Shown here: positions 3,699 through 64,000 of the stretch, piece by piece
How the letters are laid out: each line of letters opens with the position of its first letter
How positions within the stretch are numbered: position 1 is the first letter of the stretch
Program-made: the position numbers and the translations under genes
Notes under the pieces: generated by a model
Databases searched by the model: none
What the model was told of the DNA's origin: nothing
Seen by the model: the letters and a program-made list of their open reading frames with translations, nothing else
From: Candidatus Poriferisocius sp.
Lineage (GTDB): Bacteria > Actinomycetota > Acidimicrobiia > Acidimicrobiales > Bin134
Length of the DNA stretch: 64,000 nt
NCBI GenBank assembly: GCA_965221865.1
Contig: OZ244918.1
Span: forward strand, 1,702,816 to 1,766,815
Direction: 5' to 3'

Positions 3699-4029
3699 CT
3701 TATTTAGCAGTAATTTTTTGTCCCAGTTGCCAAACCCAATCAGGCGCATTTATAGCGTCATGGTCGCATAAAGCGTTAACTGCCATAGCGATCCGTGTCA
3801 GATCGTGGCGGCGCGGCGTGTGAAACGATGCCACCACCGATGTCGCTGCGGTGGTATTTTCATACTTATTACTCTATGAGCGTGATCTGTGTGCGATCAT
3901 TGCTTGCACAGTTCGCGAAGGTCAACCACACGACCACGCATATCGTTATTACGCATCAGCTCAGGAGTATCAGCAGCTGTGATAGTAGGAACAAACACCA
4001 CACTGACACAGGAGGCTCACCCAAACACG

Positions 4030-43696: not shown

Positions 43697-43860
43697 GCCC
43701 TAAAGACTACACCCAATTGACAGACTTGCTAAAGAGCAGTGTATTTACAAATAGGGGGGGGGCAGCTCACTGTTGAGTTTTTTCTTATGATTATGGTGGT
43801 GTTGTTGGTTGGGGGTGGGGTTGTGGTATGCTTTTTGGATGCGTTTTTTCGGGTTTTTAG

Positions 43861-46800: not shown

Positions 46801-49800
46801 GGGTACCAGTTTCGTAGAGGTTCAGGTGACCCGTTTAGTTGGGGTACGCATAAAGGTGTTGCTAATAGTGATGCGTCTACTACGTCTTATGTGGTGACGT
46901 CTTTGACTAATAGCACGGAGTACAGTTTTCAGGTACGCGCTTTAATTAACAGTGTGGAAGGTGCTTGGTCTAGCACAGTTAAAGCTACTCCTACGTCTAG
47001 TTCTACTGCTCCTCCGGCTGCTCCTTCAAACGTCACCGCCACAGCTGGTGACACACAAGTAGTATTAACGTGGGCTAACCCAGGTAACGCGGCTATTACC
47101 GGCTATGAGGTGCGCCAGCGTGCCGGGTCTTCTGGTAGTTGGGGTTCGTGGGCTGCTATTGCTTCAAGCAGCGCTACTACTGTTACCCACACTGCAACCG
47201 GGTTAACTAACGGCATTGAGTATAGTTTTGAGGTGCGCGCGGTTGCGGGCACAACACAAGGCGCAGCGTCGGTGACAGTAACCGCGACGCCGATGATTGA
47301 ACCGCCTATTTTGAATCTTTTTCGGCGTCCCCCAGCTAGGTTGCCTGAAGGTACAATAACCGATACCAATTTTGATTTCAGGTTGTCCCGGGCGTTGACT
47401 TCAGATGATCCTGCTTTAGTGGATTTGGAAGTAGCAGTTTCGGGTACTGCTACGCGTAACGTTGATTATCAGTTTTTTAGTAGTGGAACGGTTGCGGGTG
47501 TGTCTGTGTTGAACACAGCCGGTACAGGTAATCTTGTGCTTCGCATTAATCGGGCGACGTTCGGTACTACCAGTCAGGCCGTGTCGGTGAAGTTGGGTAT
47601 AAGAGTTCTGCCAGACAACACGGTGGAGTCGTCTGATGAGACGATTATTCTCACACCAGCGGGTGGTAGCGCGCGTACTTTTAGTGTTTATGATGCGCCA
47701 GCGTCGGTGGAAGTCAATGTTGAACAAAGCAGGCTTCGTGCTTCAACTCTTGAGAACCGTTCTTTGCATTTAACCCTTGTTTTAGACGCTGCTACTGGTA
47801 AGGATTTAGTGTTTCCTGTTTCGTATTCTGGTACAGCAACATCAGGGTCAGATTACACACCGGTTGATAGTTTCACGGTGAAAGCTAACGGGCGGTTAAC
47901 TCATTCTTTGGTTATTCCTTATGTTGATGATGATGTTGATGAGACTAACGAAACGGTGACAGTAATGTTAGGCGACGCCCCGTCTGGTGCTACTAAAGGT
48001 AGTACAGACACTGCGACTTTCACGATTGTTGATAACGATGCGACAACAGTGACAATGAAGCTTGCGGGTAGGGCGGGTATTGAAGAAAACACTTCCACTC
48101 AGCTGACAGTGTCATTAAGCCGCGATTTGGTAACAGGTGAGGAGGTTTGGGTGCCGTTGACGGTGTCGGGTACTGGTGTCACGGCAGATGATTACACGTT
48201 TAGTTTAGCTTCAGGTACAGGGTTGAACACTGGTGTCACGTTGAACACTACCGCTCCGTACAGCGCTGCGTTACCGCAGGTTTTGATTACTGGTGGTTCC
48301 GCTGTTGAGCGGTTTGCTACTTTGACTCTCAGCGCAGCTGATGATAGTACAGCAGAGAACACAGAAACATTGTCAATTGGTTACGGTAGTGTGGAAAGTA
48401 ATCTTGACCGGTTGGATGCATCTATTTTTTCTACAGGTGGTACTACTACTGCTGGTGCCCCGGTCACAGTTCAGATCAGCGATGAAGCTACTGGACCAAC
48501 GTTGCTGTTCACCAGGACAGGAACAGGGACACGGCTTCCTGAGGGCACAACTCTTGTGGAACACAATTTTGTGTTGTCTCGTCGTTTAAATGGCACTGAT
48601 CCTCAAGTACTTGAATACGAAATCGGGTTGGGTGGCACCGCTACTCGGGGTGCTGATTACACGTTAAGGTTTGTTTCGCAAGCACGCCACTCTGATGGTG
48701 TCACCGTCATTAACACTGCTGGTAGCAGTAATCCTGTTTTGCGTATCAACAGAACAGTGTTTGGCAGCAGGTTAACCAGGGGTACTGTTGGTTTAGTTTT
48801 GAGTGTAACAGCCGATAACACTGTTGAATCAGCTGCTGAAACAATTACTTTAACAACATCAGGCGGCAGCCTGGCTTACACGATTTATGATGCGCCTGCG
48901 TCTGTTGAAGCCAAGTTCACACGAGCCGCTTACGGGTATCAAGAAGGCAATAGAGTCTTTACAGTTGTGATTCAATTAAACGAACCAACAGGCAAAGATT
49001 TAGTGTTCCCCTTATCGTACCCGCAGCCTACAACAGCGGTATCAGGGGTTGATTACACACCGGTTGATAGTTACACTGTGAAAGCTAACGGGGAGTTAAA
49101 TCACGCAATCTCATTCCTATACAATGATAATAACCTTGATGAACTAACTAAAACATTGACTGTGATGTTAGGCGCAGCACCTGATGGTGTTACTAAAGGC
49201 ACCCCAGACACCGCAACAGTGACTATCTATGATAATACTCCCACAGCAGTTACTTTAGCCGTAAACGGTTCGTCTTCAATTGAAGAAGACACTAGTACTC
49301 AGCTCACTGTGACTTTGGGTCGTGATCTAGTGGCCGGTGAGATAGTGCGGGTGCCTTTGACTGTGAGCGGTACGGGTGTGACAGCCGATGATTACACGTT
49401 GGAGTTGGCTTCGGATGCGGGTGTGAATACTGGTGTAACTTTGAACACTGCTAACCCGTATAGTGCTGCTGAACCCCAAATAGTGTTCACTGGGGGCAGT
49501 AGTGTTGAGCGGGTAGCTACTTTAGTGTTAAAAGCGGTTGCTGATAATGATGATACTGAAACTTCTGAAACTATGACTATTAGTTTCGGTTCGGTTACAA
49601 GCAACTTAGATCAAATAAACCCGTCTGTTTTCGATGGGAGTGGTACTGCTGCTGGTGAGCCGGTGGAAATACTATTAGGCGCAGCTGTTTTGACTTTGTC
49701 TGTTGATAGTGGCACTGCTAATCCCACGGAGGTGGTTGAAGGCGAGTTGTTGATGATTACTGTTACGCGTAGCCAAGCTAACCGGACTGGTGCTGATATT

Positions 49801-51861
49801 AATGTTCCGTTCCGTTTGTTGATCGATGATGTAGGTTTAGTGGGTTTAGCTGATTTCACTATTCACAATGGTGATACTACTAGTTCAGCTAGTTTGAAAG
49901 CTCCTAACGACCGGTATGATGAACCAACTAAACAAGCATGGACAGCGGAATTGAACACTGCGTTGCTACCCGAAAATCATGTTGCTGATACATCTCGGGT
50001 GGCATTTACTGTTACAGATAATGATCCGACCACGGTTACTCTCAACGGGCTTGCAGGTGATATCGCTGAGGACACGGTGAAACGATTTACAATCACCCTT
50101 AACCGCGGGTTAGTAGCCGGTGAAACCTTGCCTGTACCTTTGGTTTTTGGTGGTACTGCTACCCGCAACGCGGATTACACTACTGCTTGCCCTGATCCTT
50201 TGCCGGTGGGAATACAATGCAATAATCTTGATACCGCTGAGACGCCGACTGTAACATTCACTGGCCCTCAACAAGGTGTAACAGCCCGTTCGGTTACTTT
50301 AACAGTCACCGCCCAAGCAGACCTATACACTGAAAACGACGAAACTCTGCGCATCGCTTTAGCACCCCTAAACGCTGATTCTGGTGACGGTTTAGGCGGC
50401 GGCGCGGTTGCTGTCAACGATTTTGATGCGTTCAACATCACAGACACCACCGACCCAGCAACCGCAATACAACCACCCCCAGAAGACCCTGAAGAACCTG
50501 TTGATCCTGAACCTGAAACAGTACCAACAACGCCCATATATCAAGTACCCACCAGCCTCATAGCTGATGTGCGCGGTTACGCTGCTGAAACTCACAATGG
50601 TGCCGCGCATGTGCGCCGTTGGCAACAAGTCTTGTTAGCGTTCGGTGACACCGTTAATGGGTTCACCGGCGCTCCGATCACTCTCACCGAAGCGCGAACC
50701 TATGCGCAACAGTTCTGGAGTGTTCGCTGGGATCCGGTAGTTGAAGCACTACAACAACTCGCCAACAACCCCCAACCCCAACCCACCGCAACACCTCAAC
50801 CCACTCCAACATCCACACCAACACCATCTGTTTACACCGTGCCAGCCAGCCTCATAGCTGATGTGCGCGGTTACGCTGCTGAAACTCACAATGGTGCCGC
50901 GCACGTGCGCCGTTGGCAAAGAGTCTTGCTCGCGTTCGGTGAAGACGTGCCAGGCTTCACTGGCACCCCGATCACCCTCACTCAAGCGCGAACCTATGCG
51001 CAACAGTTCTGGGGCAGCCGCTGGGATCCTGTAGTTGAAGCATTGCAACAACTCGCCAACAACCCGCCACCCCAACCTAACGACCCGTCGCCTAACAATC
51101 CGCCGCCTAACAATCCTTCAGTTGACCCACAGCCAAAACCTGTGCTGCCCAGAATCGGTGTTACAGCACCCACCGATATCACCGAAGGCCAAACCGCCGA
51201 TTTCACATTCACCGCTGTGTCCGCCCCCGCAACCCCGCTCACTGTCACTGTCAACATAATCACAACAGGTGATTATGGCATCACCGCTGGCAGCCGCACC
51301 GTGACCATAGACACCAACGGCACCGCCACACTGTCACTAGCTACCATTGGTGACAGCGTTGACGAACCAAACGGCACTATCACCGTCACACTTACCACCA
51401 GTAACACCTATAATGTTGACTCTGCTGCTGCGACTGCGACGGTTACTATCGCAGACGACGACGCACCAGTACAAACCACAAGCACACCTATTATTTCTAT
51501 AGCCGACCAAACCATCACCGAAGGCACCTCCTGTCGTACCCCCGCCCCCTGGTCCTGCCTCAACTTATACCCTGTCACTGTCACTTTGAACCAACCCCAC
51601 CACCAAAGCGTGTGGGTCTCATTCACCATCACCCAACTCGGACAAGGAACAGGCTATGCCACCGCGAACCAAGACTTCGCCGCACGCGACCGAAGAAGCT
51701 TCATCATCGCCGCAGGCCAAACCACCAAAAACATATACGTCAACATCAAAGACGACAACACCAAAGAACCCGACGAAACCTTCCAAATCACCCTACACAA
51801 CCCCCTCCGCGGACAAATCGGCGACGGACAAGCCACCATCACCATCAAAGACAACGACTAA
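43861..51861 (+). CDS. Giant secreted Calx-beta-like/FN3 repeat protein (2666 aa as listed; likely start GTG 43972)
   Basis: Signal-peptide-like RGFVAAALAAVLFGVLFGVLAPGSVGA-QT. Contains two FN3 pairs, many Calx-beta-like modules (..DNDATTV.., VD.DVDEPN.TL.V.L), three super-repeats and two 98-aa C-terminal modules. An AAGG lies 8 nt before 43972. Confidence 0.85.
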   Translation: MVVLCVGLRVLLLLWGGGGAGLVRCLRLGGWLRKVLRVRGFVAAALAAVLFGVLFGVLAPGSVGAQTSSVVSSTGDSAVEVGEGSVAVVGFSVSPPVDSEVWLRFCFESSLADSNFSNLQTQIGNMNVSLDNNGCFDGQTVTVTVAGATTQSATIRFQPLTNTVDDLDEVVTVTVSEDPDNPLPDGVSIDAEADSVSRKIVDEDPTVVSLARSGSGAITEGGSAELTVSLGRELVAGEMVGVPLAISGTNVTTADYDLVLKEGQGLNTGVELSGVSTTEPHLSFSGAGAQTATLLLTALLNNDTGAETVTVALGPDDATANGFDRPALETNVSGGVNRSSTQNSVNVTVNDPAAPAAPRLSLAQAGDGQVYLSWANPVNSLITGYEFQRRPSGGEWGSAKGIVGSNANTITYVVTGLTNDTAYTFRVRAVSGNTDGAWSDASAAVTPTSASTARPAVPTNLAAVAGDSQVVLTWDNPGNTAITSYEVRQRTGSADWGTWAAIASSSATTVTHTVTGLTNGVTYQFQVRAATGNQDALKSLTPTDFFAEATPRPAPPTLLVSSRSALRVPEGTTTLGYNIVLSRALTADDPAVLEFEIAVSGTATRGTDYSFSSDSNLSGTGVSVVNTAGKGNPVIRIDRAAFGLTRRGSTAGLIINVNPDSDTESTDETIVLTTPGTTLTHMIYDAPASVEAKFALASSTYAEGFGPLTVVVQLSALTGRDLVFPILYPSATTTAVANVDYTPVNSFTVKANGQLTHSLVIPYVDNDVDEPNKTLSVMLGAAPSGATKATTDTMTVTIADNDATTVALAVADTTLREDTDTRLTVTLSRDLVAGEIVRVPLTVSGTGVTADDYTLELASDAGLNTGVRLNIASPFSAASPQVVFTGSSGTEQVATLVLSASYDATSEGAETLQVGFGAVTSNLAHPDRSTFTAAGTTAGAPVDVTVNNLDAPAAPTGLAATAGDTQVSLVWDDPGNNLITGYQFRRGSGDPFSWGTHKGVANSDASTTSYVVTSLTNSTEYSFQVRALINSVEGAWSSTVKATPTSSSTAPPAAPSNVTATAGDTQVVLTWANPGNAAITGYEVRQRAGSSGSWGSWAAIASSSATTVTHTATGLTNGIEYSFEVRAVAGTTQGAASVTVTATPMIEPPILNLFRRPPARLPEGTITDTNFDFRLSRALTSDDPALVDLEVAVSGTATRNVDYQFFSSGTVAGVSVLNTAGTGNLVLRINRATFGTTSQAVSVKLGIRVLPDNTVESSDETIILTPAGGSARTFSVYDAPASVEVNVEQSRLRASTLENRSLHLTLVLDAATGKDLVFPVSYSGTATSGSDYTPVDSFTVKANGRLTHSLVIPYVDDDVDETNETVTVMLGDAPSGATKGSTDTATFTIVDNDATTVTMKLAGRAGIEENTSTQLTVSLSRDLVTGEEVWVPLTVSGTGVTADDYTFSLASGTGLNTGVTLNTTAPYSAALPQVLITGGSAVERFATLTLSAADDSTAENTETLSIGYGSVESNLDRLDASIFSTGGTTTAGAPVTVQISDEATGPTLLFTRTGTGTRLPEGTTLVEHNFVLSRRLNGTDPQVLEYEIGLGGTATRGADYTLRFVSQARHSDGVTVINTAGSSNPVLRINRTVFGSRLTRGTVGLVLSVTADNTVESAAETITLTTSGGSLAYTIYDAPASVEAKFTRAAYGYQEGNRVFTVVIQLNEPTGKDLVFPLSYPQPTTAVSGVDYTPVDSYTVKANGELNHAISFLYNDNNLDELTKTLTVMLGAAPDGVTKGTPDTATVTIYDNTPTAVTLAVNGSSSIEEDTSTQLTVTLGRDLVAGEIVRVPLTVSGTGVTADDYTLELASDAGVNTGVTLNTANPYSAAEPQIVFTGGSSVERVATLVLKAVADNDDTETSETMTISFGSVTSNLDQINPSVFDGSGTAAGEPVEILLGAAVLTLSVDSGTANPTEVVEGELLMITVTRSQANRTGADINVPFRLLIDDVGLVGLADFTIHNGDTTSSASLKAPNDRYDEPTKQAWTAELNTALLPENHVADTSRVAFTVTDNDPTTVTLNGLAGDIAEDTVKRFTITLNRGLVAGETLPVPLVFGGTATRNADYTTACPDPLPVGIQCNNLDTAETPTVTFTGPQQGVTARSVTLTVTAQADLYTENDETLRIALAPLNADSGDGLGGGAVAVNDFDAFNITDTTDPATAIQPPPEDPEEPVDPEPETVPTTPIYQVPTSLIADVRGYAAETHNGAAHVRRWQQVLLAFGDTVNGFTGAPITLTEARTYAQQFWSVRWDPVVEALQQLANNPQPQPTATPQPTPTSTPTPSVYTVPASLIADVRGYAAETHNGAAHVRRWQRVLLAFGEDVPGFTGTPITLTQARTYAQQFWGSRWDPVVEALQQLANNPPPQPNDPSPNNPPPNNPSVDPQPKPVLPRIGVTAPTDITEGQTADFTFTAVSAPATPLTVTVNIITTGDYGITAGSRTVTIDTNGTATLSLATIGDSVDEPNGTITVTLTTSNTYNVDSAAATATVTIADDDAPVQTTSTPIISIADQTITEGTSCRTPAPWSCLNLYPVTVTLNQPHHQSVWVSFTITQLGQGTGYATANQDFAARDRRSFIIAAGQTTKNIYVNIKDDNTKEPDETFQITLHNPLRGQIGDGQATITIKDND
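43904..43918 (+). repeat. Homopolymeric G15 tract in the giant gene 1 leader / extreme 5' end
   Basis: Counted directly. Lies 54 nt upstream of GTG 43972, where a signal-peptide-like sequence starts. A G9 run is at 43754-43762. Confidence 0.95.
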
Positions 51862-53516: not shown

Positions 53517-54824
53517 ATGACCACAAACGCAGAACTGTATAAGCGTTATCGAGCCGTGTTGCCTTCTTATGTGAAACCGCTTTACACCGAACCTATTAGC
53601 ATCCACCGTGGCCAGGGCAGCTATGTGTGGGATGTGGAAGGTAACCGCTATTTAGATTTTTTTGGTGGCGTGCTTACCACAATGGTGGGCCACAACAACC
53701 CAGCAGTTACAGCTGCCATACAGAATCAAGCATCCAAGGTGCTTCACACCTCCACGTTGTATTTGTGTGAACCCATGATCCAGCTAGCCGAAGAGATAGC
53801 AGCAGTTAGCGGCATAGATGATGCGCGAGTGTTTTTTACTACCTCAGGTAGCGAAGCCAACGATACCGCTATTTTGTTAGCTACTAGCTACAGAAAATCA
53901 AATGAAGTGTTGGCTATGCGTAACAGTTATCACGGCCGCTCCTTTACGACTCAGGCCATTACAGCGCACTCTTCTTGGACGTCTACTGCACTGTCTGGGC
54001 TGTCGGTGCATTTTGTGCATGGTGCCTATCGGTTGCGTAGTCCGTTTCGCGATTTAGATGACGAAGAGCTAACCGCAGCTTGTACTGAGGATCTGCGTCA
54101 AGTTCTAGACATGATGACCACAGGATCGCCAGCTTGTTTTATTGCTGAACCCATTCAAGGTGTTGGTGGGTTTACTACCCCACCTGATGGTTTTTTTACG
54201 CCTATGCATAAGCTTTTGTCCAAACACGAGACATTGTTTGTAACAGATGAGGTGCAAACTGGTTGGGGGCGAACTGGCGAGCATTTTTGGGGCTACCAAG
54301 CCCACAACATAATTCCCGACATGTTGACTTTTGCCAAAGGCGTGGGTAATGGCATTACTCTGGCAGGGATCGTAGCTAGAGCCGAGATAATGGATACGAT
54401 CAAGGCGCTGAGCTTCTCCACCTTTGGCGGCAATCCACTGTCGGCAGCAGCTGGTTTAGCTACTTTGCGGTATGTGCAGGAAAATAATTTGCAACAAAAT
54501 GCTTCTACGATGGGCCGCCGCATGGTCGATGCTCTGAGGCCAGCTGCACAAAGAGCGCCATGGATTGCAGAGTTGCGGGGTAAGGGTCTTATGTGGGCTT
54601 TAGAGATCGTAGTGCCAGATACGATTGAGCCTGATGCAGTTCGCGCCGGTGACCTTTTGGAAGGTTGTAAGCGGCGTGGACTCTTGGTGGGTAAGGGTGG
54701 GTTGTATGGCAATGTTTTGCGTATCACGCCCATGCTGGATGTAACTGCAGCAGAAATTGATGAGGGTGTGGCAGCCATTTGCGAGACCATCGAAGAGATA
54801 GAAGAGATAGATAGGAAGGTGTAG
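53517..54824 (+). CDS. Class-III PLP aminotransferase (beta-alanine/omega-amino acid type)
   Basis: GSEANDTA, DEVQTGWGRTG, TFAKGVGNG. Confidence 0.8.
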   Translation: MTTNAELYKRYRAVLPSYVKPLYTEPISIHRGQGSYVWDVEGNRYLDFFGGVLTTMVGHNNPAVTAAIQNQASKVLHTSTLYLCEPMIQLAEEIAAVSGIDDARVFFTTSGSEANDTAILLATSYRKSNEVLAMRNSYHGRSFTTQAITAHSSWTSTALSGLSVHFVHGAYRLRSPFRDLDDEELTAACTEDLRQVLDMMTTGSPACFIAEPIQGVGGFTTPPDGFFTPMHKLLSKHETLFVTDEVQTGWGRTGEHFWGYQAHNIIPDMLTFAKGVGNGITLAGIVARAEIMDTIKALSFSTFGGNPLSAAAGLATLRYVQENNLQQNASTMGRRMVDALRPAAQRAPWIAELRGKGLMWALEIVVPDTIEPDAVRAGDLLEGCKRRGLLVGKGGLYGNVLRITPMLDVTAAEIDEGVAAICETIEEIEEIDRKV

Positions 54825-54828
54825 CGCT

Positions 54829-56238
54829 GTGACTAAGTTTATTAAAGGTGGAACTGTCGTAAGCCCCACTGGAGCCGATCCTGTGGAGGTGCTGATTGAC
54901 GGCGAGACTATCGCCGCTGTGTTGCAACCAGGTTCAGATGTAGCTTTAGCAGCCGAAAACGGGGCTGATCAGATACTAGACGCTACAGGAAAGCTGGTTG
55001 TGCCCGGTGGCGTAGATGTGCATACTCATATGGAGTTGCCGTTTGGTGGCACTGTTGCGTCAGACGATTTTGAATCAGGAACTCGCGCTGCTGCTTGGGG
55101 TGGCACTACCACTATTGTAGATTTTGCTACGCAAAGCTACGGCTTAGACGTGCGCGAGTGTTTTGAGGCTCGTATGGCTCAAGCCGAAGGGCGCTGTGCC
55201 ATTGATTATGGCTTCCATATGATTATTGGTGATGTTACCGATGTTGCTCTTGGTGAGATGGACCTTTTAGTTAATGAAGGCGTGAGCAGCTTCAAACTGT
55301 TTATGGCGTATCCAGGCGTGTTTTACAGTGATGACGGCCAGATTTTGCGGGCTATGCAGCAGTGCGCCAGCAATGGTGGTTTGATGATGATGCATGCTGA
55401 AAATGGTATAGCCATTGATGTGCTAGCCGAACAAGCTTTTGAACGAGGTGAGACCGACCCTGTTAACCATGGGTATGTGCGTCGAGCCGAGTTTGAGTCG
55501 GAGGCAACCCATCGTGCTATTCAGCTAGCTAAGGTGGGTGCAGCCCCGCTGTACATCGTTCACCTGTCTGCTAAGCAAGCCTTAGAGCAGGTAGCCATTG
55601 CTCGCAATAACGGTGCCAATGTTTTTGCAGAGACCTGCCCACAATACTTGTATTTCAGTTTGGAGGAACACCTAGATCAAGGTTGGGATGGTGCCGCCTA
55701 CGTTTGTTCCACGCCTATCCGTTCTCATCACCATCACCATCAAGATGAGTTGTGGAAGGGTTTGCGAACTAACGATTTGGCGGTTGTGTCAACCGACCAT
55801 TGCCCGTTTTGCATGAAGGAGCAAAAAGAGTTGGGTGTTGGCGATTTTCGGGCTATTCCTAATGGTATAGGTGGCGTAGAGCATCGCATGGATTTGATTT
55901 ATCAAGGTGTAGCTACAGGCGAGATTAGTGTTCCCCGTTGGGTGGAGTTGTGTTCAACAACGCCAGCTCGCATGATGGGTCTTTATCCTCGCAAGGGTAT
56001 TATCCAACCGGGATCAGATGCTGATTTGGTTATCTACGATCCACAAGCCTCTTGGACTATTAGCGTGGATAATCATCACATGAACATCGACCATTCCGCT
56101 TATGAGGGTATAGAGGTAAGTGGACATGTAGACACGGTGTTGTCTAGAGGGCGTGTGATAGTTGATAAGAATCAGTATTTTGGCCACATGAGTCACGGCC
56201 AGTATCAGCGCCGTGGTTTGAGCAGCTACTTGATCTAA
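54829..56238 (+). CDS. Dihydropyrimidinase / D-hydantoinase
   Basis: GGVDVHTHMELPFGG, FKLFMAY (carboxylated Lys), STDHCPF. Confidence 0.88.
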   Translation: MTKFIKGGTVVSPTGADPVEVLIDGETIAAVLQPGSDVALAAENGADQILDATGKLVVPGGVDVHTHMELPFGGTVASDDFESGTRAAAWGGTTTIVDFATQSYGLDVRECFEARMAQAEGRCAIDYGFHMIIGDVTDVALGEMDLLVNEGVSSFKLFMAYPGVFYSDDGQILRAMQQCASNGGLMMMHAENGIAIDVLAEQAFERGETDPVNHGYVRRAEFESEATHRAIQLAKVGAAPLYIVHLSAKQALEQVAIARNNGANVFAETCPQYLYFSLEEHLDQGWDGAAYVCSTPIRSHHHHHQDELWKGLRTNDLAVVSTDHCPFCMKEQKELGVGDFRAIPNGIGGVEHRMDLIYQGVATGEISVPRWVELCSTTPARMMGLYPRKGIIQPGSDADLVIYDPQASWTISVDNHHMNIDHSAYEGIEVSGHVDTVLSRGRVIVDKNQYFGHMSHGQYQRRGLSSYLI

Positions 56239-56277
56239 CGGCTGAGATATGTATTTCACACCCATGAGGAGTTAATA

Positions 56278-57765
56278 GTGCAGGAGATACACCATTTAAT
56301 TAACGCAAAGCAGGTTGCAGGCACATCAGGGCGTACATCTGCGGTTTTTAATCCTGCTACTGGCACACAAACCGGTGTTTTGTCGCTGGCAGCTAAAGAC
56401 GAGGTAGATTATGCGGTAGCAGCAGCACAGGCTGCTTTTACCGAGTGGCGTAAGGTGTCGGTGGCGCGCCGCATCACCTTAATGTTTAGTTTTCGTAATT
56501 TGGTGGTAGAACATACCGACAAGATAGCGGGCTTGCTTACTGCTGAGCATGGCAAGGTTAACGTAGATGCTTTGGGTGAGGTAGCTCGCGCTATTGAGAA
56601 CGTTGAGTATGCGTGTGGGGTAGCTGAGCATCTTAAAGGTAGCCACAATGAGACGGCATCTACTGGTGTAGATGTCTATACGGTGCGTCGCCCTTTGGGT
56701 GTTGTGGCTGGAATAACACCGTTTAATTTTCCGGCCATGGTGCCTTTATGGATGATTCCTAACGCTGTTGCTTGCGGTAATACTTTTGTGCTCAAACCTT
56801 CAGAGCGCGACCCGTCTGCTCCTATGTTCATAGCTGAGTTGTTTCAACAAGCTGGTTTCCCGCCTGGGGTATTGAATGTAGTTAACGGCGATAAGGTAGC
56901 CGTGGATCGGCTGTTAGAGCATGCAGATATCAAGGCGGTGAGCTTTGTTGGTTCTACCCCTATTGCTCGTTATGTGTACGAAACTGGCACTTCGCATGGA
57001 AAGCGGGTTCAAGCTCTAGGCGGCGCTAAAAATCATATGGTGGTGTTACCCGATGCTGATATTGATTTAGCTGCTGACTCAGCGGTTTCAGCTGCCTACG
57101 GATCAGCTGGGGAACGCTGCATGGCTATTTCTGTGGTGGCCGCAGTTGGGGATGTTGCCGATCCATTGGTTGATGCTATTAAAGTACGTATGGAGAAGCT
57201 GGTTATTGGCAGTGGCGTTGATCCCGCTTCGGATATGGGGCCGCTAATCACCCGGGAACATCGCGACAAGGTAGCGGGGTACATTGATTCTGCTGTGGTA
57301 CAAGGGGCAAATGTTGTGGTAGACGGTAGGCAAAGTCATTTTGAAGGAGACGGCTTCTTTCTTGGAGTGTCGTTGTTAGACAACGTAACTGCTGATATGG
57401 ATGCCTACCGCGATGAGATATTTGGCCCGGTGCTTTGTGTTGTGCGATGCGATACTTACGCTGAAGCTGTTGGGCTCATAGCAGACAATTCTTATGGTAA
57501 TGGTGCAGCTATCTTTACTCGAGATGGTGGAGCAGCTCGACGGTTTCAAGAAGATGCCGATGCTGGCATGGTGGGGATAAATGTACCTTTGCCAGTACCA
57601 GTGGGGTACCACTCTTTTGGTGGTTGGAAAGACTCCCTTTTTGGCGACACTACTATGTATGGACCTGAAGGAATTTCTTTCTACACCCGCCCTAAGGTGA
57701 TGACCACCCGTTGGCCCGACCCTGCTGAAAGTTCAGTAAACCTTGGTTTTCCCACTAATGCTTGA
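56278..57765 (+). CDS. mmsA: CoA-acylating methylmalonate/malonate-semialdehyde dehydrogenase
   Basis: FNFPAMVPLWM, VLKPSERDP, GERCMA. Confidence 0.88.
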   Translation: MQEIHHLINAKQVAGTSGRTSAVFNPATGTQTGVLSLAAKDEVDYAVAAAQAAFTEWRKVSVARRITLMFSFRNLVVEHTDKIAGLLTAEHGKVNVDALGEVARAIENVEYACGVAEHLKGSHNETASTGVDVYTVRRPLGVVAGITPFNFPAMVPLWMIPNAVACGNTFVLKPSERDPSAPMFIAELFQQAGFPPGVLNVVNGDKVAVDRLLEHADIKAVSFVGSTPIARYVYETGTSHGKRVQALGGAKNHMVVLPDADIDLAADSAVSAAYGSAGERCMAISVVAAVGDVADPLVDAIKVRMEKLVIGSGVDPASDMGPLITREHRDKVAGYIDSAVVQGANVVVDGRQSHFEGDGFFLGVSLLDNVTADMDAYRDEIFGPVLCVVRCDTYAEAVGLIADNSYGNGAAIFTRDGGAARRFQEDADAGMVGINVPLPVPVGYHSFGGWKDSLFGDTTMYGPEGISFYTRPKVMTTRWPDPAESSVNLGFPTNA

Positions 57766-57868
57766 CGGGACACACCTGTTCCCCGATATTTTGAGAGCAG
57801 ATTGTTTGGGTAATATAGTAAACGTTACGTCAAGCTACTATTGTTGGTGATTGTTGAAAGGATGAGGA

Positions 57869-58741
57869 ATGGCAAAAACTGAGACTATTCGTGCTCGAGT
57901 TGAGCCAGAGCTTAAACAAAAGGCCGACAAGGCACTAGCTGAACTTGGTGTTACAGCTACCGATGCCATTACACGAATGTATGAAGAGGTTGTGTCCACA
58001 GGGGCGTTACCGTTTGCCGATGATGCAACAACCACAGCTAATCCGAATAAACAAATCGCAAACCCTAAAGAACCGGTAGAAGGGCAAACTGTTGTAGCTA
58101 CATCTCAACGCCCACCTACAGAGGCGAGTCGTTCCGAAGGTTATCACGATAAGGTTTCAGGGGAACAGCAGCGTCAAGGCACACCTAAAAACGATATACC
58201 TAAAGAAGAACTACCTACTTCTAGTTCACGGGAGGGAACGGTTTCGCTAGGCGGTTTTTCGCCTGACGCGAGGATAAAGCCTGCAACTATTTTTATTATT
58301 TTGGGGTCTTTGGCTTTTGCAGCCTTGTTTGCGGTCTTTTTGTATCTTCTTGTCGCAGAGCGTTCTCACACTCATGATGAGTACGCCGAACACACCCATG
58401 CGCATGATGAGTATGCCAGTCACACGCATGCGCATGATGAGTACGCTGAGCACACTCATGATGAGTACGCCGAACATACCCATACCCACGATGAATATGC
58501 TGAACATACCCATGTGGTGAGCCCTTATGGTTATGGCCTAAACAGCCAGCCTCAGTACCCGGTGCCTCCTGTTTATGGGACTATTCCTGCACCTGCTCCA
58601 TTTTGGCCTGCTCCAGAGCTTTATTCACAACCCAATTCTGGAGCAGAAATGTATTACTGTCCTAATGGAGAGCATTATTCATTTCAAGCATCTCCAGACT
58701 GCGTTTATAGGGGAACATATTACAATAGACCTTTTGGATAA
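57869..58741 (+). CDS. DinJ/RelB-like RHH domain fused to a TM helix and a His-rich repeat region
   Basis: N-terminus TIRARVEPELKQKADKALAELGVTATDAITRMY..V...GALPF resembles DinJ. TM is ATIFIILGSLAFAALFAVFLYLLVA. Five HTH(A)HDEYAE repeats lie at 58367-58513. Confidence 0.6.
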   Translation: MAKTETIRARVEPELKQKADKALAELGVTATDAITRMYEEVVSTGALPFADDATTTANPNKQIANPKEPVEGQTVVATSQRPPTEASRSEGYHDKVSGEQQRQGTPKNDIPKEELPTSSSREGTVSLGGFSPDARIKPATIFIILGSLAFAALFAVFLYLLVAERSHTHDEYAEHTHAHDEYASHTHAHDEYAEHTHDEYAEHTHTHDEYAEHTHVVSPYGYGLNSQPQYPVPPVYGTIPAPAPFWPAPELYSQPNSGAEMYYCPNGEHYSFQASPDCVYRGTYYNRPFG

Positions 58742-58756
58742 AGGCTAGAAAATCAG

Positions 58757-60900
58757 CGGTGGTTGGGTGGGGTTAGAGTTTTATGTAGGTGTCGGGGTTT
58801 TGGGTGTGTTTTTGCTTTGGGGAACAGATTTTTCGTGTTGTTGATAATTGGGGAACAGATTTTGTTTGTTTGTTTTTATCTGGGTTTTTAGCTTGTTTGT
58901 AAGGGTTTTCTAGTTTTTGTTGTTCCTCGTGGTTTGTTTTCCGTTATCTGTGTGTGTTGGTTGTTTGTTTTTGTAGTTTGTGGGGGTTTGGTGTTTGTTG
59001 GAGGGTAGCTGCTGGGGGTGGTGGGGTTTTGGTGGGGGTGTGGTTGGTTTTTTATTGTTTGTTGATTTTTGTATAGTATATGAATTATGAGTGGTTTGTT
59101 GTTTTGTTTGTTGAGGGGGGGTTTGTGTTTTGATTCTTTGGTGTGCGGGGGGGGGGGCTGGGTTTGTTGTTTGGGGTTGTGTGTGTGGGTTGAGGTGGGG
59201 TTGTGATGTTGGTGGGGGGTTTTTGTTTTAGGGTTGTTTGTGGTTTGGTGGTTGTGTTGGGTTTGTTTGTTTCGGGTTTGGGTGTTGGTGGTGGTGTGGT
59301 TGCGGAGGGGGGTGGTTTTGTGGGGGTGGGTGTGGGGGGTTCTGGTGTTGTTGTGGGGGTGGGTGATGTTGGTGTTGGTGGGGTTTTGGGTGTTGGGGGT
59401 GGGTCTGATTTGTTTTGGGGTTTGGATGGTTTGGAGGGTTTGGAGGGTGTTGGGGGTGGTGTTGGTGTGGTTGGGGGTCGTGTGGGTGGTGGGTTGTTGT
59501 TTGGTGGGGATGGTTTTTTGGATTTGGGTGTGGGTGTGGGTGGGGGTGGGGGTTTTGGTTTTGAGGGGTGTGGGTCTGGGGAATCTGGTGTGGTTGAGGG
59601 TGTTGTTGAGGAGCTTATGTCAGATACTGTTGTGGCGGATAGTGGGTGTGGGTGGTCTGTTGGTTTGTGGGTGAAGCGGGTTGGTGGGGTTGTTGGTGGG
59701 TCTGTGTTGTTGGGGTCTTTGGAGGGTGGGGATTCTTTGTTGTTGGAGGGTGTTGGGGGTCGTGTGGGTGTGGGGCGGTTGGGTGGTGTGGTTCGTAGTT
59801 TTGGGTTTGGTACGCCGTTGGGTGAGTGGGTTTATTTGGTGTTTGTGGGGTCGTCGGGTGGTGTGGGTTTGTTTGTGGATGGGGTGTTGGTGGGTTGGGT
59901 TGGTGGGGGTGTTGGGTTGTCTTTGGGTGTTTTGGGTGGTGGTGTTGGTGGTGTTGGGGGTGTGAGGGCTGTTTTGGATGATTTGCGGGTGTGGGGTCGT
60001 GTGTTGTCTGCGGGTGAGGTGGCGGGGGTGTTTGGGGGGTTTGAGCCGTTGTTGGTGCCTGGTGTTGTTGAGGGTTTGGTTGGGGCTGATGTTGGTGTTG
60101 GGAGTGTTGGGTTGGGGTGGTTAGCGCCTGTTGGTGGTGGTGGGGTTGAGGGGTTTGAGGTGCGTTGGCGTGAGGAGGGTTCGGGTGTGTGGTTGGGTGA
60201 GGGTGTGGTTGAGGTGTCGGCTCAGGGGAAGGGGGAAGAGGGGTATGGTTTTGTGGCCGATGGGTTGGGTGTTGGGGTGGCATATGAGTTTTGGGTGCGT
60301 GCTGTTAATGGTGTGGGTGGTGGTGGTTGGGTTTCTGTTCGGTTTGTTGCGGGTGTTTCGGGGGTGGCTGATGTTGTGAGCGGGTTGAGGGTGTCTTCTG
60401 AGCCGGGTGGGTTTAGGGTTTCGTGGGGTAGGCCTGTTGATGCGGGTGGTTTTGATGTGTCGGGGTTTGAGGTGCGTTACCGGCGTGGTGGTGGTGGTGG
60501 TTGGGTGTCTGAGTTTGTGGGTGACACAGAGCGGGGGTTGGTGGTGGATGGTTTGGTTGTTGGTGGTGCCTATGAGGTGCAGGTGCGGGTTTTGACTGGG
60601 TTTGGTGCGGGTTTGTGGGTGTCTGGGAGGGTTGTTGTGGGTCGTGAAGGTGTTCCGGGTGTTCCGGGTGGGTTGTTGGTTGATGTTGGGGCAGATGGGG
60701 TGGTGTTGTTGTGGGATGCGCCTGTTAGTGATGGTGGTGTTGGGGTTGATGGTTATGAGGTTCGGTATAGGCGGGGCGGGTTTTGGTCTGAGCCTGTTGG
60801 TTTAGAGTCTTGGGTGCGGGGTTATGAGTTTTCGGGTTTGGTGCGTGGTGTGGATCATGTGTTGTTGGTGCGGGCTATAAATGAGCGTGGGCCGGGTTCT
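58757..60900 (+). other. G+T-saturated (A/C-depleted) tract
   Basis: For example, 59281-59400 has 4 A/C in 120 nt. The tract covers 450 nt of non-coding DNA and the first 1.7 kb of giant gene 2. Confidence 0.9.
59147..59157 (+). repeat. Homopolymeric G11 tract 49 nt upstream of the giant gene 2 ATG (plus G7 at 59115-59121)
   Basis: Counted directly. Confidence 0.95.
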
Positions 60901-63900
60901 TGGGCTGGTTTAGAGGTAGGTTTTGGTGTTTCATCTAAACAAGCGTTCACGGTGCCTAGGTTGGTTGGTTGGTTGCCTGGTGATGGGGTGTTCACAGTTG
61001 TTAGGGGTTCACGTGTTGTGATTACGGGTGGTGATACAGCTAGGAGTTGGTCTGAGGATTTCATGTCCACAGTATTAGAAAACGAAGAGGTGGTAGCCGA
61101 TGTTGACAGTGTTTTAGGTGTGAATGTGTTGCAAGCACATTCACAGGTTGTGGGTGTTGCTACTGCTGCGCGTAGGGTTTTACGGGAGGTAGCAGAAAAG
61201 ATAGCTGCCGATTTGGAAGCTGTCACAGGTTTTGATGTGCCTGTGGTGGTGGTTGATGATATTCAAAGTGCGCGTGCTGGTGACATTGTGTTGGATGTAG
61301 CTGATAGTTCGGTTGAAGGGTTGGGGGTGGAAGGTTACACATTGTTTGTGGGTGATGTGGTAAGGATTGTTGGGAATACTTCTACTGGCGTGTTTTGGGG
61401 GTCGAGGTCTTTGCTGCAATTGTTAGCAGCATCTGAAACCGGTTTGGTGGTACCAGCAGGTTCGGTGCGTGATATTCCTTCAGCGGTTAGCGCTGTGAGA
61501 TCTTTGCATTTAGATAAAGCAGCCAGGTTTTACAGTCCAACACATTTACAACAGTTGATCGGGTTGTTGTCTTGGCACAAACTAAACGTGTTACACCTTG
61601 ATTTCACTTTCGCTAATGGTAGATACGATCAAGCGGTTTGGCTTTCGGATTTAGAAAACTTCGCTCGCGACCATCATGTGGCAGTAATCGTTAGCGAACC
61701 GCTTGCCGACACTACACCACCCGCAGAACAAGCAGACAGGCTAGTTGCTGAAAGTTTTGTTAGCAGCGGTGTGGTTGGGAGTGTTGTTGGTGACGGTGAT
61801 GCAGGGTTAGTTGAGAGCACAGTCACACAAGACCGTCAACAATTAGCTAACACTGTGTCTGGTGTGAGCGCGGATCGTTGGGTGAGGGGACACCGTTTTG
61901 TTTTAGGACGTCAACTTGTGTTACCTGATTTAGCGGCTATTCACAGTCTGGCTAGCAAACTGAATGGGCCCGGTGAGGTGGGTGCTGGACTGTTCGTGGG
62001 CGGCCCGTTAGCTTTAGCAGCCACCGACGGGTTCATCAACTATCATTTAGGTTCGTCTTTAGCAGTGCTCGGTGACCGGTTATGGAACGAGCAGGCATCT
62101 AACTGGACAGTCGACGAGTTCCTAACAGCTAAAAACATTATCGGTTCACCGCTCACAACAAAAACCGTTCACAACTCTGAACAACATCGCGGGCTCATAC
62201 ACCACTGGAGTTTCAACAATGTGAAATATTATCAAACCTCTGAAAACACAGCAGATAAGACAAGCTATTTACTAATACCCGATCATACGGGCAGAGCTGA
62301 CGGATATGCGATCGGTGACCCACAAAAATTTCCTCGGCTAAACGCTGACAGCCGTCTTTTAGGTCAAAGCATAGAATTCGGGCACAGCGAACAAGTCCTA
62401 AACCAAGACGGCATAGAACTAGGCGCCACAGACTTACCAGTACCATGGACCCTGTCAGCGTGGGTGAAACGAACCGGCAACCATCCCGGAGCGACACTAC
62501 TAAACTCAATTAACGGGGCGATACGCCTACAACAACACAACAAACCCGTAATAGGCCTCCTAGACCGCACAAACACACCATACACATACCACAACTTTGA
62601 CTACACCCTGCCACTAAACAAATGGGTACACCTAACACTCATCGCCACCCAACAAGGCACAGTACTATACGCTGATAGCCGTCTTGTCGGCTCAGTGCCC
62701 AAGTCGATTTCGTTGCCGCTACAACAAATCGGGTTTGAAAACCTCATCGGCCTAAAAGCCAAAATAGATGATATCAAAATATGGGGGCAACCACTTGTTT
62801 CTGCTGTCAACCAAGTTATATCCACCCCAACAACACCCATTGATCAACCCATAGTGCCCGAGCTGGTTGCTACACCACCATTAGAACCCGGTTTAGTAGC
62901 AGTGTCGCTGGATGTGAACAACTCGGGCACAGTCACAGAGGGTGGCACGTTGACGGTCACTGCGACATTAGCGGCAGCGGCCGCAGCGAACGTTACGATT
63001 CCAGTGCGCGTTGCCTCCGGTGGCACAGCAGGAGCTGGTGATTACACACTTTCTGCTTCGGGGAACATTACTATTAGCAGCGGTTCCACATCAGGCACTT
63101 TGACGTTTAATGCTACCGATGACAGTATTGATGAAAACAATGAGACGCTAACATTAGAGTTCGGTACGCTACCTGCCGGTTATCGTGCTGGCAGCCCGTC
63201 AAGTGTGAACATCACCATAACAGACAACGACACAGCGGGTGTGACCATCACCGAGACCGGTGACAGCACATCGGTAGCAGAAAACGCTGGTACTGACACT
63301 TACACCGTCGTGTTAGACACCCAGCCAACCCATGATGTGTCGGTGGCGGTCACATCAACAGGGCCTGTGGCGTTTGATGGACCAGATGATGCGACCGCGT
63401 ACACCACAAGTGAAACATTAACGTTCACACCAACTAACTGGGCGACAGCGCAGACGATCACAGTGCAAGGCCAAAACGATGATGTGGACAACACTGGCGG
63501 GTCGCGTAGCGCGACACTCTCTCATGATGTGTCGTCCAGCGACACGGCTTATAACGCTATAGCTGACCAAGATGTCACCGTAACGGTGACCGATGATGAT
63601 GCGACGCCTGAGATTGATTTAAGTGTGAACCCGGCAACGGTGGCAGAAGATGCTGGCGCGACCACGGTGACAGTTACCGCCACGGTTGATGACGCGACCA
63701 TCAGATTTGACGCGGCGAAAACGGTAGCAGTGTCGGTTACAGGGTCGGGTGAGGCTAACCGGGTCGGGTTCACAGCGGTCAACAACTTCAACATTACTAT
63801 CGCTGCTGGCCAACCGTCGGGGAGTAACACGTTCACGCTCACACCAGATGATGACAGCACTGATGAGACCGACGAGACAATCACCATATCGGGCACTTCA

Positions 63901-64000
63901 ACTGGGCTAACCATCAACCCGGCGACGTTGACCCTCACCGACGATGATGCTCTTGCACTTGTTAGCATGCCTGTCACGTTGGGGGTCAACAACTCGGGCA
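59206..64000 (+). CDS. Giant surface protein 2 (partial, continues past the window)
   Basis: Domain order is TM/signal, LamG, 3x FN3, GH20-like, LamG, Calx-beta-like repeats. Frame 1 is open from the stop at 59191-59193 to the window end, checked by hand translation of several segments. It is absent from the ORF track because no stop is reached. Recognisable landmarks include W.VGLWVKR...LFVDG...DDLRVWGR.LSAGEV (LamG_3), FRVSWGRPVDAGGFDVSGFEVRYR (FN3), EGYTLFV...GVFWGSRSLLQLL...D.P....R.LHLD.AR.FYS...L..LI.LLS.HKLNVLHLDF (GH20-like), and ..TITDNDTAGV.. (Calx-beta-like). Confidence 0.85.
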   Translation, partial: MLVGGFCFRVVCGLVVVLGLFVSGLGVGGGVVAEGGGFVGVGVGGSGVVVGVGDVGVGGVLGVGGGSDLFWGLDGLEGLEGVGGGVGVVGGRVGGGLLFGGDGFLDLGVGVGGGGGFGFEGCGSGESGVVEGVVEELMSDTVVADSGCGWSVGLWVKRVGGVVGGSVLLGSLEGGDSLLLEGVGGRVGVGRLGGVVRSFGFGTPLGEWVYLVFVGSSGGVGLFVDGVLVGWVGGGVGLSLGVLGGGVGGVGGVRAVLDDLRVWGRVLSAGEVAGVFGGFEPLLVPGVVEGLVGADVGVGSVGLGWLAPVGGGGVEGFEVRWREEGSGVWLGEGVVEVSAQGKGEEGYGFVADGLGVGVAYEFWVRAVNGVGGGGWVSVRFVAGVSGVADVVSGLRVSSEPGGFRVSWGRPVDAGGFDVSGFEVRYRRGGGGGWVSEFVGDTERGLVVDGLVVGGAYEVQVRVLTGFGAGLWVSGRVVVGREGVPGVPGGLLVDVGADGVVLLWDAPVSDGGVGVDGYEVRYRRGGFWSEPVGLESWVRGYEFSGLVRGVDHVLLVRAINERGPGSWAGLEVGFGVSSKQAFTVPRLVGWLPGDGVFTVVRGSRVVITGGDTARSWSEDFMSTVLENEEVVADVDSVLGVNVLQAHSQVVGVATAARRVLREVAEKIAADLEAVTGFDVPVVVVDDIQSARAGDIVLDVADSSVEGLGVEGYTLFVGDVVRIVGNTSTGVFWGSRSLLQLLAASETGLVVPAGSVRDIPSAVSAVRSLHLDKAARFYSPTHLQQLIGLLSWHKLNVLHLDFTFANGRYDQAVWLSDLENFARDHHVAVIVSEPLADTTPPAEQADRLVAESFVSSGVVGSVVGDGDAGLVESTVTQDRQQLANTVSGVSADRWVRGHRFVLGRQLVLPDLAAIHSLASKLNGPGEVGAGLFVGGPLALAATDGFINYHLGSSLAVLGDRLWNEQASNWTVDEFLTAKNIIGSPLTTKTVHNSEQHRGLIHHWSFNNVKYYQTSENTADKTSYLLIPDHTGRADGYAIGDPQKFPRLNADSRLLGQSIEFGHSEQVLNQDGIELGATDLPVPWTLSAWVKRTGNHPGATLLNSINGAIRLQQHNKPVIGLLDRTNTPYTYHNFDYTLPLNKWVHLTLIATQQGTVLYADSRLVGSVPKSISLPLQQIGFENLIGLKAKIDDIKIWGQPLVSAVNQVISTPTTPIDQPIVPELVATPPLEPGLVAVSLDVNNSGTVTEGGTLTVTATLAAAAAANVTIPVRVASGGTAGAGDYTLSASGNITISSGSTSGTLTFNATDDSIDENNETLTLEFGTLPAGYRAGSPSSVNITITDNDTAGVTITETGDSTSVAENAGTDTYTVVLDTQPTHDVSVAVTSTGPVAFDGPDDATAYTTSETLTFTPTNWATAQTITVQGQNDDVDNTGGSRSATLSHDVSSSDTAYNAIADQDVTVTVTDDDATPEIDLSVNPATVAEDAGATTVTVTATVDDATIRFDAAKTVAVSVTGSGEANRVGFTAVNNFNITIAAGQPSGSNTFTLTPDDDSTDETDETITISGTSTGLTINPATLTLTDDDALALVSMPVTLGVNNSG

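Follow-up and report, generated by a model that had tools for sequence, protein, structure and literature searches.

What has taken two of the four bases out of one strand of a gene, and what keeps them out? The question is raised by a tract at positions 58757-60900 of the window (the whole 64,000-nt stretch of DNA that was analysed, positions 1,702,816 to 1,766,815 of contig OZ244918.1 from Candidatus Poriferisocius sp.), where A and C are almost missing from the + strand (G 1034, T 841, A 143, C 126; 87.5% G+T). The tract spans the leader and the 5' part of a giant surface-protein gene. An initial annotation, made from the letters alone, had read it as coding DNA that underwent near-saturating A->G plus C->T change on one strand, filtered by purifying selection, and had seen in it the signature of deamination in single-stranded DNA. 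We found that the coding tract and its purifying filter are real, but that one-strand deamination does not fit its history.

G+T per 100 nt is 0.81-0.97 across 58801-60900, and 97% of the third codon positions in the tract are G or T. Two local counts in the initial annotation were reproduced exactly, 4 A/C within 120 nt at 59281-59400 and 37 of 40 codons ending in G or T at 60409-60528. Scanning the whole genome (G000; a single contig of 2.93 Mb, 50.3% GC) in 300-nt windows, as that annotation had proposed, gave a mean G+T fraction of 0.50 (sd 0.078), and more than 0.85 G+T over ~2 kb was found in three tracts only: the one in the window and those of two paralogues in the same genome. We call the window copy P1 and the paralogues P2 and P3. 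Downstream of the P1 tract, G+T falls to 0.62-0.75 by 61.4 kb and then to 0.27-0.45 at 62.1-62.9 kb. The G/T fraction at third codon positions (GT3) is 0.56-0.63 in neighbouring genes vs 0.94-1.00 in the tract, so the skew is not common to co-oriented genes.

There is next to no chance that the tract is an artefact of assembly or consensus calling. Sequencers have trouble with extreme composition and with homopolymers, and the assembly of a sister species of the same genus, G005, breaks at a poly-G/poly-C run, but an independent metagenome contig (ENA ERZ25072152), which covers the first 700 nt of the tract, equals window positions 54278-59457 apart from one poly-G base. In addition, three intact open reading frames (ORFs) of about ten thousand codons (10,768 for P1, and 9,488 and 10,458 for the paralogues) pass through the tract, Pfam domains remain readable in it, and orthologues are present in two other assemblies, G005 and a second sister species, G042. 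In G005 (locus L002, contig C44, 660-880), an N gap lies just 5' of the orthologue together with runs of G and of C, and the G042 orthologue is on a 4.5-kb contig truncated on both sides; such tracts seem to be places where short-read assemblies break.

The paralogues are 97-98% identical to P1 over 3.7-7.4 kb (97-99% among the three copies), diverging by 0.9-1.6% in the tract and by 2.1-3.0% in the next 1.9 kb, and the orthologues are ~68% identical. Both orthologues have the same N-terminal architecture of one LamG and three FN3 domains, and both are G/T-rich as well (GT3 of 0.70-0.94 in G005 and 0.82-1.00 in G042). Neither G000 nor any of 39 further genomes of the genus yielded a progenitor copy of ordinary composition. 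A contig search with the part of the protein that has ordinary composition gave three distant matches (38-43% identity) in unrelated metagenome-assembled genomes, and a metagenome-contig search with the module alignment gave 42 loci, all of them distant FN3 proteins (21-39% identity) and none a close strain. A protein homologue search with residues 130-666, whose length range leaves out giant proteins, returned two weak matches. G/T-biased third positions also occur in surface-protein genes of relatives (loci L006 and L007), which were retrieved by similarity to the tract and show that such genes exist, not how frequent they are.

Comparing G000, G005 and G042 codon by codon and assigning changes to branches by majority rule, we found that 327 of 332 third positions (98.5%) were already G or T in the inferred common ancestor. 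On the G000 branch, third positions of the tract show 33 G<->T exchanges with 0 A>G, 1 C>T, 1 G>A and 1 T>C; at positions 1 and 2 together there are 8 A>T, 2 A>G, 6 C>T and 5 C>G. The pairwise matrix against G005 holds 54 C>G and 60 C>T. Later change is thus mostly G<->T transversion, not the near-saturating A->G plus C->T that had been supposed, and A/C losses are as often transversions as transitions.

The third-position G<->T rate is equal in the tract (33/327) and in the next 680 codons (30/293). Hence, G<->T exchange can be used as a clock. Measured beside it, G>A plus T>C at third positions number 2 in the tract vs 50 in the next 680 codons (Fisher 3e-9), and the ratio of G>A to G>T is 117:48 in rpoB, on the same strand, vs 1:17 in the tract (Fisher 6e-8). 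Third-position singletons among the paralogues, on a time-scale so short that reversion cannot hide events, comprise 2 GT>AC and 6 G<->T changes in the tract vs 28 and 6 downstream (Fisher 0.004). In the tract, the numbers of G>A and T>C fall ~20-40-fold below what the transversion clock predicts, and AC>GT per site is only ~3-fold up. Added damage would leave GT>AC unchanged, whereas GT>AC is suppressed and AC>GT is raised mildly. Hence, the counts indicate a fixation bias, with a pattern that matches a scaled selection coefficient of ~3.5-4.5. These results give moderate support to an old steady state, common to the orthologues in two sister species, that is kept up by fixation bias against A and C in the sense strand (through selection on the nucleic acid or possibly through biased gene conversion) and is opposed, with similar moderate support, by purifying selection on the protein.

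The deamination reading holds that A->G and C->T changes arose recently on one strand, either through a deaminase of the AID-like or toxin type or through spontaneous deamination while the DNA was single-stranded. It can draw on directional residue changes relative to the less skewed G005 orthologue (for example Asp/Glu/Lys to Gly), on A>G being the commonest class per site among paralogue differences (8 events, ~105 A's) and on a reduced repair capacity for deaminated bases, but the G/T state is older than the split of the three species, no unmutated progenitor copy was found, transversions are as common as transitions among A/C losses, third-position change is dominated by G<->T, and the same gene contains a mirror-image A/C-rich domain. 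A six-frame scan for the H/C-x-E...PC-x-x-C motif, made without a deaminase-family hidden Markov model search, found only RibD-, Cdd- and TadA-like ORFs (a match to UvrA was false). The initial annotation had itself set orthologues of like composition against its reading, and orthologues in two other species do carry that composition. Hence, the deamination reading is largely refuted by the orthologue comparison, and we hold it to be very improbable.

The features of the P1 locus, all on the + strand, are as follows.

58757-59037, +: G/T-rich non-coding leader present in P1 only; G+T 0.66-0.88, no ORF
59038-59202, +: shared leader, common to P3 from 59038 and to P2 from ~59141
59147-59157, +: poly-G run of 11 bases, ~55 nt 5' of the start codon
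59192-59208, +: Shine-Dalgarno-like GAGGTGGGG, followed by GTG (59203) and ATG (59206) starts, as read from the sequence
59203-63999, +: 5' part of the 10,768-codon giant surface-protein ORF, which continues past the window to genome position 1794324
59203-59649, +: residues 1-149, a signal-peptide-like hydrophobic start and then a Gly/Val-rich segment; G+T 0.92-0.97
59650-60024, +: Laminin_G_3 domain 1, written in G and T; Pfam 39.6 bits (cut-off 27.6)
60076-60330, 60376-60612 and 60664-60903, +: three FN3 domains; G+T 0.78-0.88
60904-61500, +: fading zone; G+T 0.62-0.75, GT3 0.66-0.82, with a GH20b-like domain at 61129-61473
62100-62900, +: mirror-image A/C-rich domain of the same ORF; G+T 0.27-0.45, GT3 0.12-0.40, Leu written as CTA

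Three giant surface-protein genes (9.5-10.8 thousand codons) are paralogues, and it is well supported that the tract forms the promoter-proximal module of one of them and that this module runs in the order leader, poly-G run, signal peptide, Gly/Val-rich segment, LamG and three FN3 domains. The ORF is preceded by an in-frame stop at 59191, and the Pfam families found in it are fn3, Laminin_G_3, GH20b and Calx-beta. The three FN3 domains score 38.5, 32.2 and 31.9 bits (cut-off 25), and the Laminin_G_3 domain of the G005 orthologue reaches 49.7 bits; thus the LamG and FN3 domains that the initial annotation had recognised by eye all lie above the Pfam cut-offs. The Gly/Val-rich segment (~110 residues after the signal-like start) had no family match in a Pfam search. 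AlphaFold2, run on residues 1-666 with a 4-row alignment, gave a poor model overall (mean predicted local distance difference test score, pLDDT, 43.8), in which residues 1-149 are modelled as disordered (pLDDT 23-25) and the FN3 part, with beta-sandwich strand patterns at pLDDT 55-78, is the sole usable part. A second Laminin_G_3 domain (62404-62796) falls within the A/C-rich domain; hence, a single protein contains two LamG domains spelled in opposing alphabets of two letters each, G/T in one and A/C in the other.

The non-coding part of the module differs among the copies. P1 has ~450 nt of G/T-rich leader, of which the last 165 nt are common with P3 and the last 60-70 nt with P2; accordingly, an onset ~450 nt 5' of the start codon, as first described, applies to P1, and the leaders of the paralogues span only ~70 nt and ~165 nt. 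BLAST of the P1-only leader, which contains a 31-nt direct repeat (58806-58863), found no homologue 5' of P2 or P3. The leader of P3 is interrupted by a decayed insertion sequence (IS) copy. An A/T island at 59061-59092 in the shared leader is kept in P3, and a promoter role for it is only a guess; a scan for a sigma-70 consensus and for terminators 5' of P1 found nothing. P2 has a promoter-like site, TTGACG-17-TATAAT, with 11/12 matches at -360 to -332 (locus L109, 381-409; genome 1800680-1800708), and ~250 nt of ordinary composition separate it from the onset of the G/T regime. The poly-G run has 11 bases in P1, 18 in P2 and 13 in P3, and the independent ENA contig has 10 where P1 has 11; HiFi homopolymer error is a possible source of these length differences. 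The run looks like a candidate tract for slipped-strand phase variation, and the three giant paralogues are probably phase-variable genes.

Several features of the tract sequence itself were looked for. A tandem-repeat scan gave weak short arrays only (at most 130 nt, scores 52-90), and head-to-tail units do not account for the tract. An Rfam covariance-model search of the tract locus and one IS locus gave no match at E <= 0.1. Selection for G-quadruplexes was rejected, the tract holding 7 motifs vs a mean of 7.1 in composition-matched shuffles; 21 of the 115 such motifs in the genome fall in the three tracts.

On the 5' side of P1, the neighbouring gene (57869-58741) encodes a RelB-antitoxin-like N-terminus followed by His/Asp/Glu-rich repeats (HAHDEYAEHTH-like). 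The C-terminal end of this RelB-like neighbour is kept 5' of the G005 orthologue. Hence, gene order is conserved.

The protein has been reshaped by the tract and has also resisted it. Gly makes up 29.7% and Val 22.1% of the residues, codons ending in G or T are used for all amino acids (50 of the 53 Leu codons are TTG), and Thr, Asn, Ile, Lys, Gln and His are almost gone; Thr is 0.7% in the tract vs 14.1% in the remainder of the protein. Yet no stop codon is found where base composition predicts 14, and Cys (0.7%) and Trp (3.0%) are far rarer than the expected 8.0% and 9.5%, which, together with the domain scores, bears out that this is real coding DNA and no low-complexity insert. The A and C that survive in codons 1-566 stand mostly where the residue is set, as had been noticed, with 61 at position 1, 135 at position 2 and 16 at position 3. 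Hence, the force that acts against A and C meets resistance from purifying selection at the protein level. The remainder of the giant gene already favours G/T-ending codons (0.60-0.80), and the tRNA gene set of the genome is ordinary.

The tract is not alone in its polarity. GT3 is 0.80-1.00 in the first 100 codons of nine of the 14 largest genes and 0.03-0.08 in the last 100 codons of six of them, and several have G/T-rich 5' ends of 200-400 nt. Eight giant genes of 4,751-17,824 codons, all co-oriented with replication, total ~255 kb, or 8.7% of the 2.93 Mb. A second surface-protein gene in the window (43861-51861; 2,666 codons) has a G/T-rich 5' end (43710-44211; 300-400 nt at G+T 0.75-0.89), a GT3 of 0.08 in its last 100 codons, two poly-G runs, and a leader peptide motif common to other surface-protein genes. 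Homopolymers of 9-23 nt made of G or of C occur ~50 times in the genome, and A or T runs of at least 11 nt are absent; most of the G/C homopolymers lie either 20-150 nt 5' of the start of a giant or large surface-protein gene or a short way into the gene, and those in the window are at 59147-59157, 43754, 43904 and 7243.

IS elements share the pattern. In all 24 rve (IS481/IS3-like) remnants, G+T starts at 0.65-0.80 on the 5' side, drops to 0.12-0.25 over the final 200-300 nt and returns sharply to ~0.5 where the element ends. One remnant lies in the window (3363-3702, A/C-rich at 3391-3702) and 23 elsewhere in the genome; all 24 carry stops or score poorly, and no intact copy was seen in G000. 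Intact IS copies in high-GC relatives have a milder gradient (GT3 0.67-0.70 to 0.10-0.27). A dead 1.25-kb IS with terminal inverted repeats GAGCTTTCCCCC / GGGGGAAGCTC and no ORF longer than 81 codons is present in G000 as four copies that are 96-97% identical (942562-943818, 267050-268292, 955752-956994 and 2392288-2393528), in which 27 recent changes erode the skew and 15 reinforce it (not significant). A partial copy (2026513-2027307) just 5' of P3 has displaced the P3 leader.

Over all genes the trend is weak with the same sign, GT3 falling from 0.57 at starts to 0.45 in the last 20 codons. Replication contributes a keto skew (GT3 ~0.59 in leading-strand genes and ~0.45 in lagging-strand genes, switching near 1.45 Mb and 2.7 Mb), and the tract is on the leading strand, but this skew does not account for it: the sign reverses at 62.1-62.9 kb within the same ORF. 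On the same strand as the tract, rpoB, rpoC, tuf and fusA have ordinary GT3 (0.56-0.62). GT3 is ~0.05 higher in genes for multi-pass membrane proteins on both replication strands. A rule for all secreted proteins found no support, with GT3 of 0.613 for signal-peptide genes vs 0.576 on the leading strand (p = 0.06) and no effect on the lagging strand. These results support the view that the tract is the extreme case of a genome polarity in which the 5' border of large surface-protein genes and IS elements is G/T-rich and the 3' border A/C-rich.

Three further explanations compete for this pattern. Transcription-linked mutation bias, in which R-loops or supercoiling let the non-template strand gather C>T, A>G, G>T and A>T damage, worsened by loss of uracil glycosylase, is unlikely but is the rival we take most seriously. 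It would suit a skew that takes in the non-coding leader and fades with distance from the start, a G-rich sense strand in which the three tracts hold nearly a fifth of the genomic G-quadruplex motifs, and the raised GT3 of membrane-protein genes on both replication strands; transertion, moreover, is known to act as a barrier and to trap negative supercoiling (PMC9352719). Repair also points this way, G000, G005 and G042 having one uracil-DNA glycosylase (UDG)-family gene vs three in other genus members and having come down to ~50-54% GC, and EndoV being found in none of the 40 genomes. However, strong G/T third-position bias also occurs in relatives with all three UDG genes (a biased sample, retrieved by similarity), quadruplex motifs are no more numerous than in composition-matched shuffles, P2 seems to be transcribed with an ordinary leader, and GT>AC is suppressed ~20-40-fold where the model needs only a boost of AC>GT. 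The skew also changes sign inside one transcription unit and at the 3' ends of large genes, and rpoB, rpoC, tuf and fusA are ordinary. Hence, the sign change and the lack of an expression effect argue against a simple non-template-strand mutation model. As for the genomes themselves, the three small ones that carry the tract measure 1.8-2.9 Mb, nearly all others being 3.1-4.1 Mb with 60-68% GC and three UDG genes, and rpoB third positions in the three show heavy C>T and G>A. A cyanobacterial source for G000 was rejected for want of a Photo_RC match; its RpoB and RpoC sizes and distant matches point to Actinomycetota, perhaps to Acidimicrobiia.

Strand-biased gene conversion would have the copies homogenised by recombination, with heteroduplex repair or a repeatedly exposed invading strand favouring G/T alleles. 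The close identity of the copies next to the ~68% of the orthologues, the lower divergence in the tract than beyond it, the multi-copy and likewise skewed IS elements and the fixation bias in the substitution counts fit this account, but it does not explain the 3' sign reversal or the G/T third positions in other surface-protein genes of relatives, and recent changes in the four dead IS copies tend to erode the skew. We know of no conversion bias that is both keto/amino- and strand-specific, and we consider this account improbable. Slightly less probable again is selection on protein or translation, favouring either a stalk rich in Gly and Val or an extended ramp of slow codons ending in G or U where a giant exported protein begins. 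The Gly and Val content, the disordered model of the first 149 residues and the use of G/T-ending codons by every amino acid, which the remainder of the gene also prefers, agree with it; the equally G/T-rich non-coding leader, folded LamG and FN3 domains pushed off their usual residues (Thr above all), a second LamG domain of the same protein in the opposite alphabet, IS pseudogenes with the same polarity and an ordinary tRNA gene set do not.

The explanation we prefer adds a function to the old, fixation-biased module. The defining ligand of the terminator protein Rho is single-stranded, C-rich, G-poor RNA. We found that YC dinucleotides number 28.6 per 100 nt in the antisense RNA of the tract, 11.0 in the genome mean and 3.1 in the sense RNA, and that minimum free energy per 900 nt is -10 kcal/mol for the tract antisense, -104 for the tract sense and -312 for an ordinary gene; the centroid structure of the antisense RNA is unpaired. 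The genome has a rho gene (607-codon ORF, Rho_RNA_bind 91 bits), so the antisense strand has the properties of a Rho-utilisation (rut)-like site: C-rich, G-poor, unstructured and dense in YC, in a cell that encodes Rho. Work on E. coli found Rho-refractory sequence to be characteristic of ORFs read in the sense direction, and strong Rho signals to be characteristic of antisense strands (PMC6144790).

On this basis, RNA leaving the gene across either border would consist of C and A only and stay unfolded, and such C-rich, G-less RNA would be the best possible Rho loading site. Sense RNA would be the substrate at the 3' border and antisense RNA at the 5' border, and the almost C-free sense RNA of the 5' module would resist Rho. 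Both exit directions would then give ideal Rho substrates and entering sense transcripts would be refractory. Hence, the borders can be read as directional insulators, with the long 5' part of a 32-kb transcript shielded from premature termination. This Rho reading of the borders is tentative and draws on RNA composition, RNA folding and the presence of the rho gene. An old G/T module kept by biased fixation, a polarity at gene borders and Rho insulation form, in combination, our best explanation, to which we give somewhat less than an even chance.

Several points weigh against this combination. The polarised substitution counts are small and depend on roughly called ORFs and on majority-rule polarisation, the control segment next to the tract shows a drift of its own towards A/C, and the substitution data fit selection and biased gene conversion alike. 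For Rho, ~100 nt would be enough for loading, so that the 2-kb length is not accounted for, and the exclusion of A from the sense strand is accounted for solely via the antisense RNA. Some 3 kb into the ORF, the A/C-rich domain would place a sense Rho site within the gene itself, average composition just 3' of stop codons is not A/C-rich, and the promoter-like site of P2 precedes ~250 nt of ordinary sequence before the G/T regime.

How does the tract compare with known systems? Strand compositional asymmetries (the leading-strand keto skew, and the A>G, C>T gradient of the vertebrate mitochondrial heavy strand) likewise make one strand rich in G and T, but the skew of the tract is local (2 kb), near-absolute at third positions, tied to borders and sign-reversing within a gene, and its counts point to fixation bias and not to damage. 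The Rho-refractory sense ORFs and Rho-prone antisense strands marked by C>G 'bubbles' (Nadiras et al. 2018, PMC6144790; the system of Peters et al. 2012, as cited there) share a C-poor sense strand and a C-rich, G-poor, unstructured antisense strand. In E. coli that asymmetry is a mild statistical tendency, whereas here it is a kilobase two-letter alphabet that reshapes the protein. Immunoglobulin class-switch and R-loop tracts are also kilobase-sized, promoter-downstream and G-rich in non-template clusters with many quadruplex motifs, but the tract is coding, T-rich too and free of repeat units, with quadruplexes at the number its composition predicts. Editing hypermutation (AID/APOBEC, fungal repeat-induced point mutation, DddA/SsdA-type toxins) produces comparable strand-polar base loss over kilobases and skewed transposable elements; the tract differs in lacking a transition-only signature, a progenitor and a detected deaminase gene, and in being ancient and stationary.

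Contingency loci of Neisseria, Haemophilus and Campylobacter rely on homopolymeric tracts. They resemble this locus in having long G/C runs, of a length varying between copies, at or just 5' of surface-protein gene starts. To our knowledge they do not carry a two-letter coding domain, which is the feature of the tract, and switching here is a candidate property only. Codon ramps extend over tens of codons, with no non-coding DNA and no amino-acid change. Ramps and rare signal-sequence codons have atypical synonymous codons at the 5' ends of exported-protein genes in common with the tract, which instead spans ~570 codons plus the leader and alters the amino-acid content. The nearest known phenomena are therefore strand compositional skews and the Rho sense/antisense asymmetry, of which the tract is an extreme, border-bound and protein-rewriting version. 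We found no published description of such tracts in the searchable literature, which is weak negative evidence.

It is possible, though we doubt it, that the kilobase-scale two-letter domains are a new class of cis-element for directional, Rho-dependent insulation and polarity or else the footprint of a strand- and border-specific repair or conversion process. As cis-elements, they may reflect nucleic-acid selection strong enough to rewrite folded protein domains, with a scope that may take in the giant contingency genes and IS elements of this actinobacterial lineage.

If the composition is selected, the tract would be an unusually clear case of a DNA or RNA constraint overriding protein sequence: a LamG domain and three FN3 domains have been recoded to be rich in Gly, Val, Leu and Trp, the sister LamG domain is rich in Thr, Asn, Gln, His, Lys and Pro, and both are still recognisable. 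It would also open to experiment the question of how gene borders are marked in bacteria with few hairpin terminators, and that of how a 30-kb gene avoids being terminated too early. On the practical side, gene finders, measures of codon usage and horizontal-transfer tests go wrong on such tracts, and short-read assemblies appear to break there. Finally, ~50 G/C homopolymers at surface-gene starts, the loss of two of three UDG genes and the wholesale decay of IS elements make a coherent lead on genome evolution in the low-GC branch.

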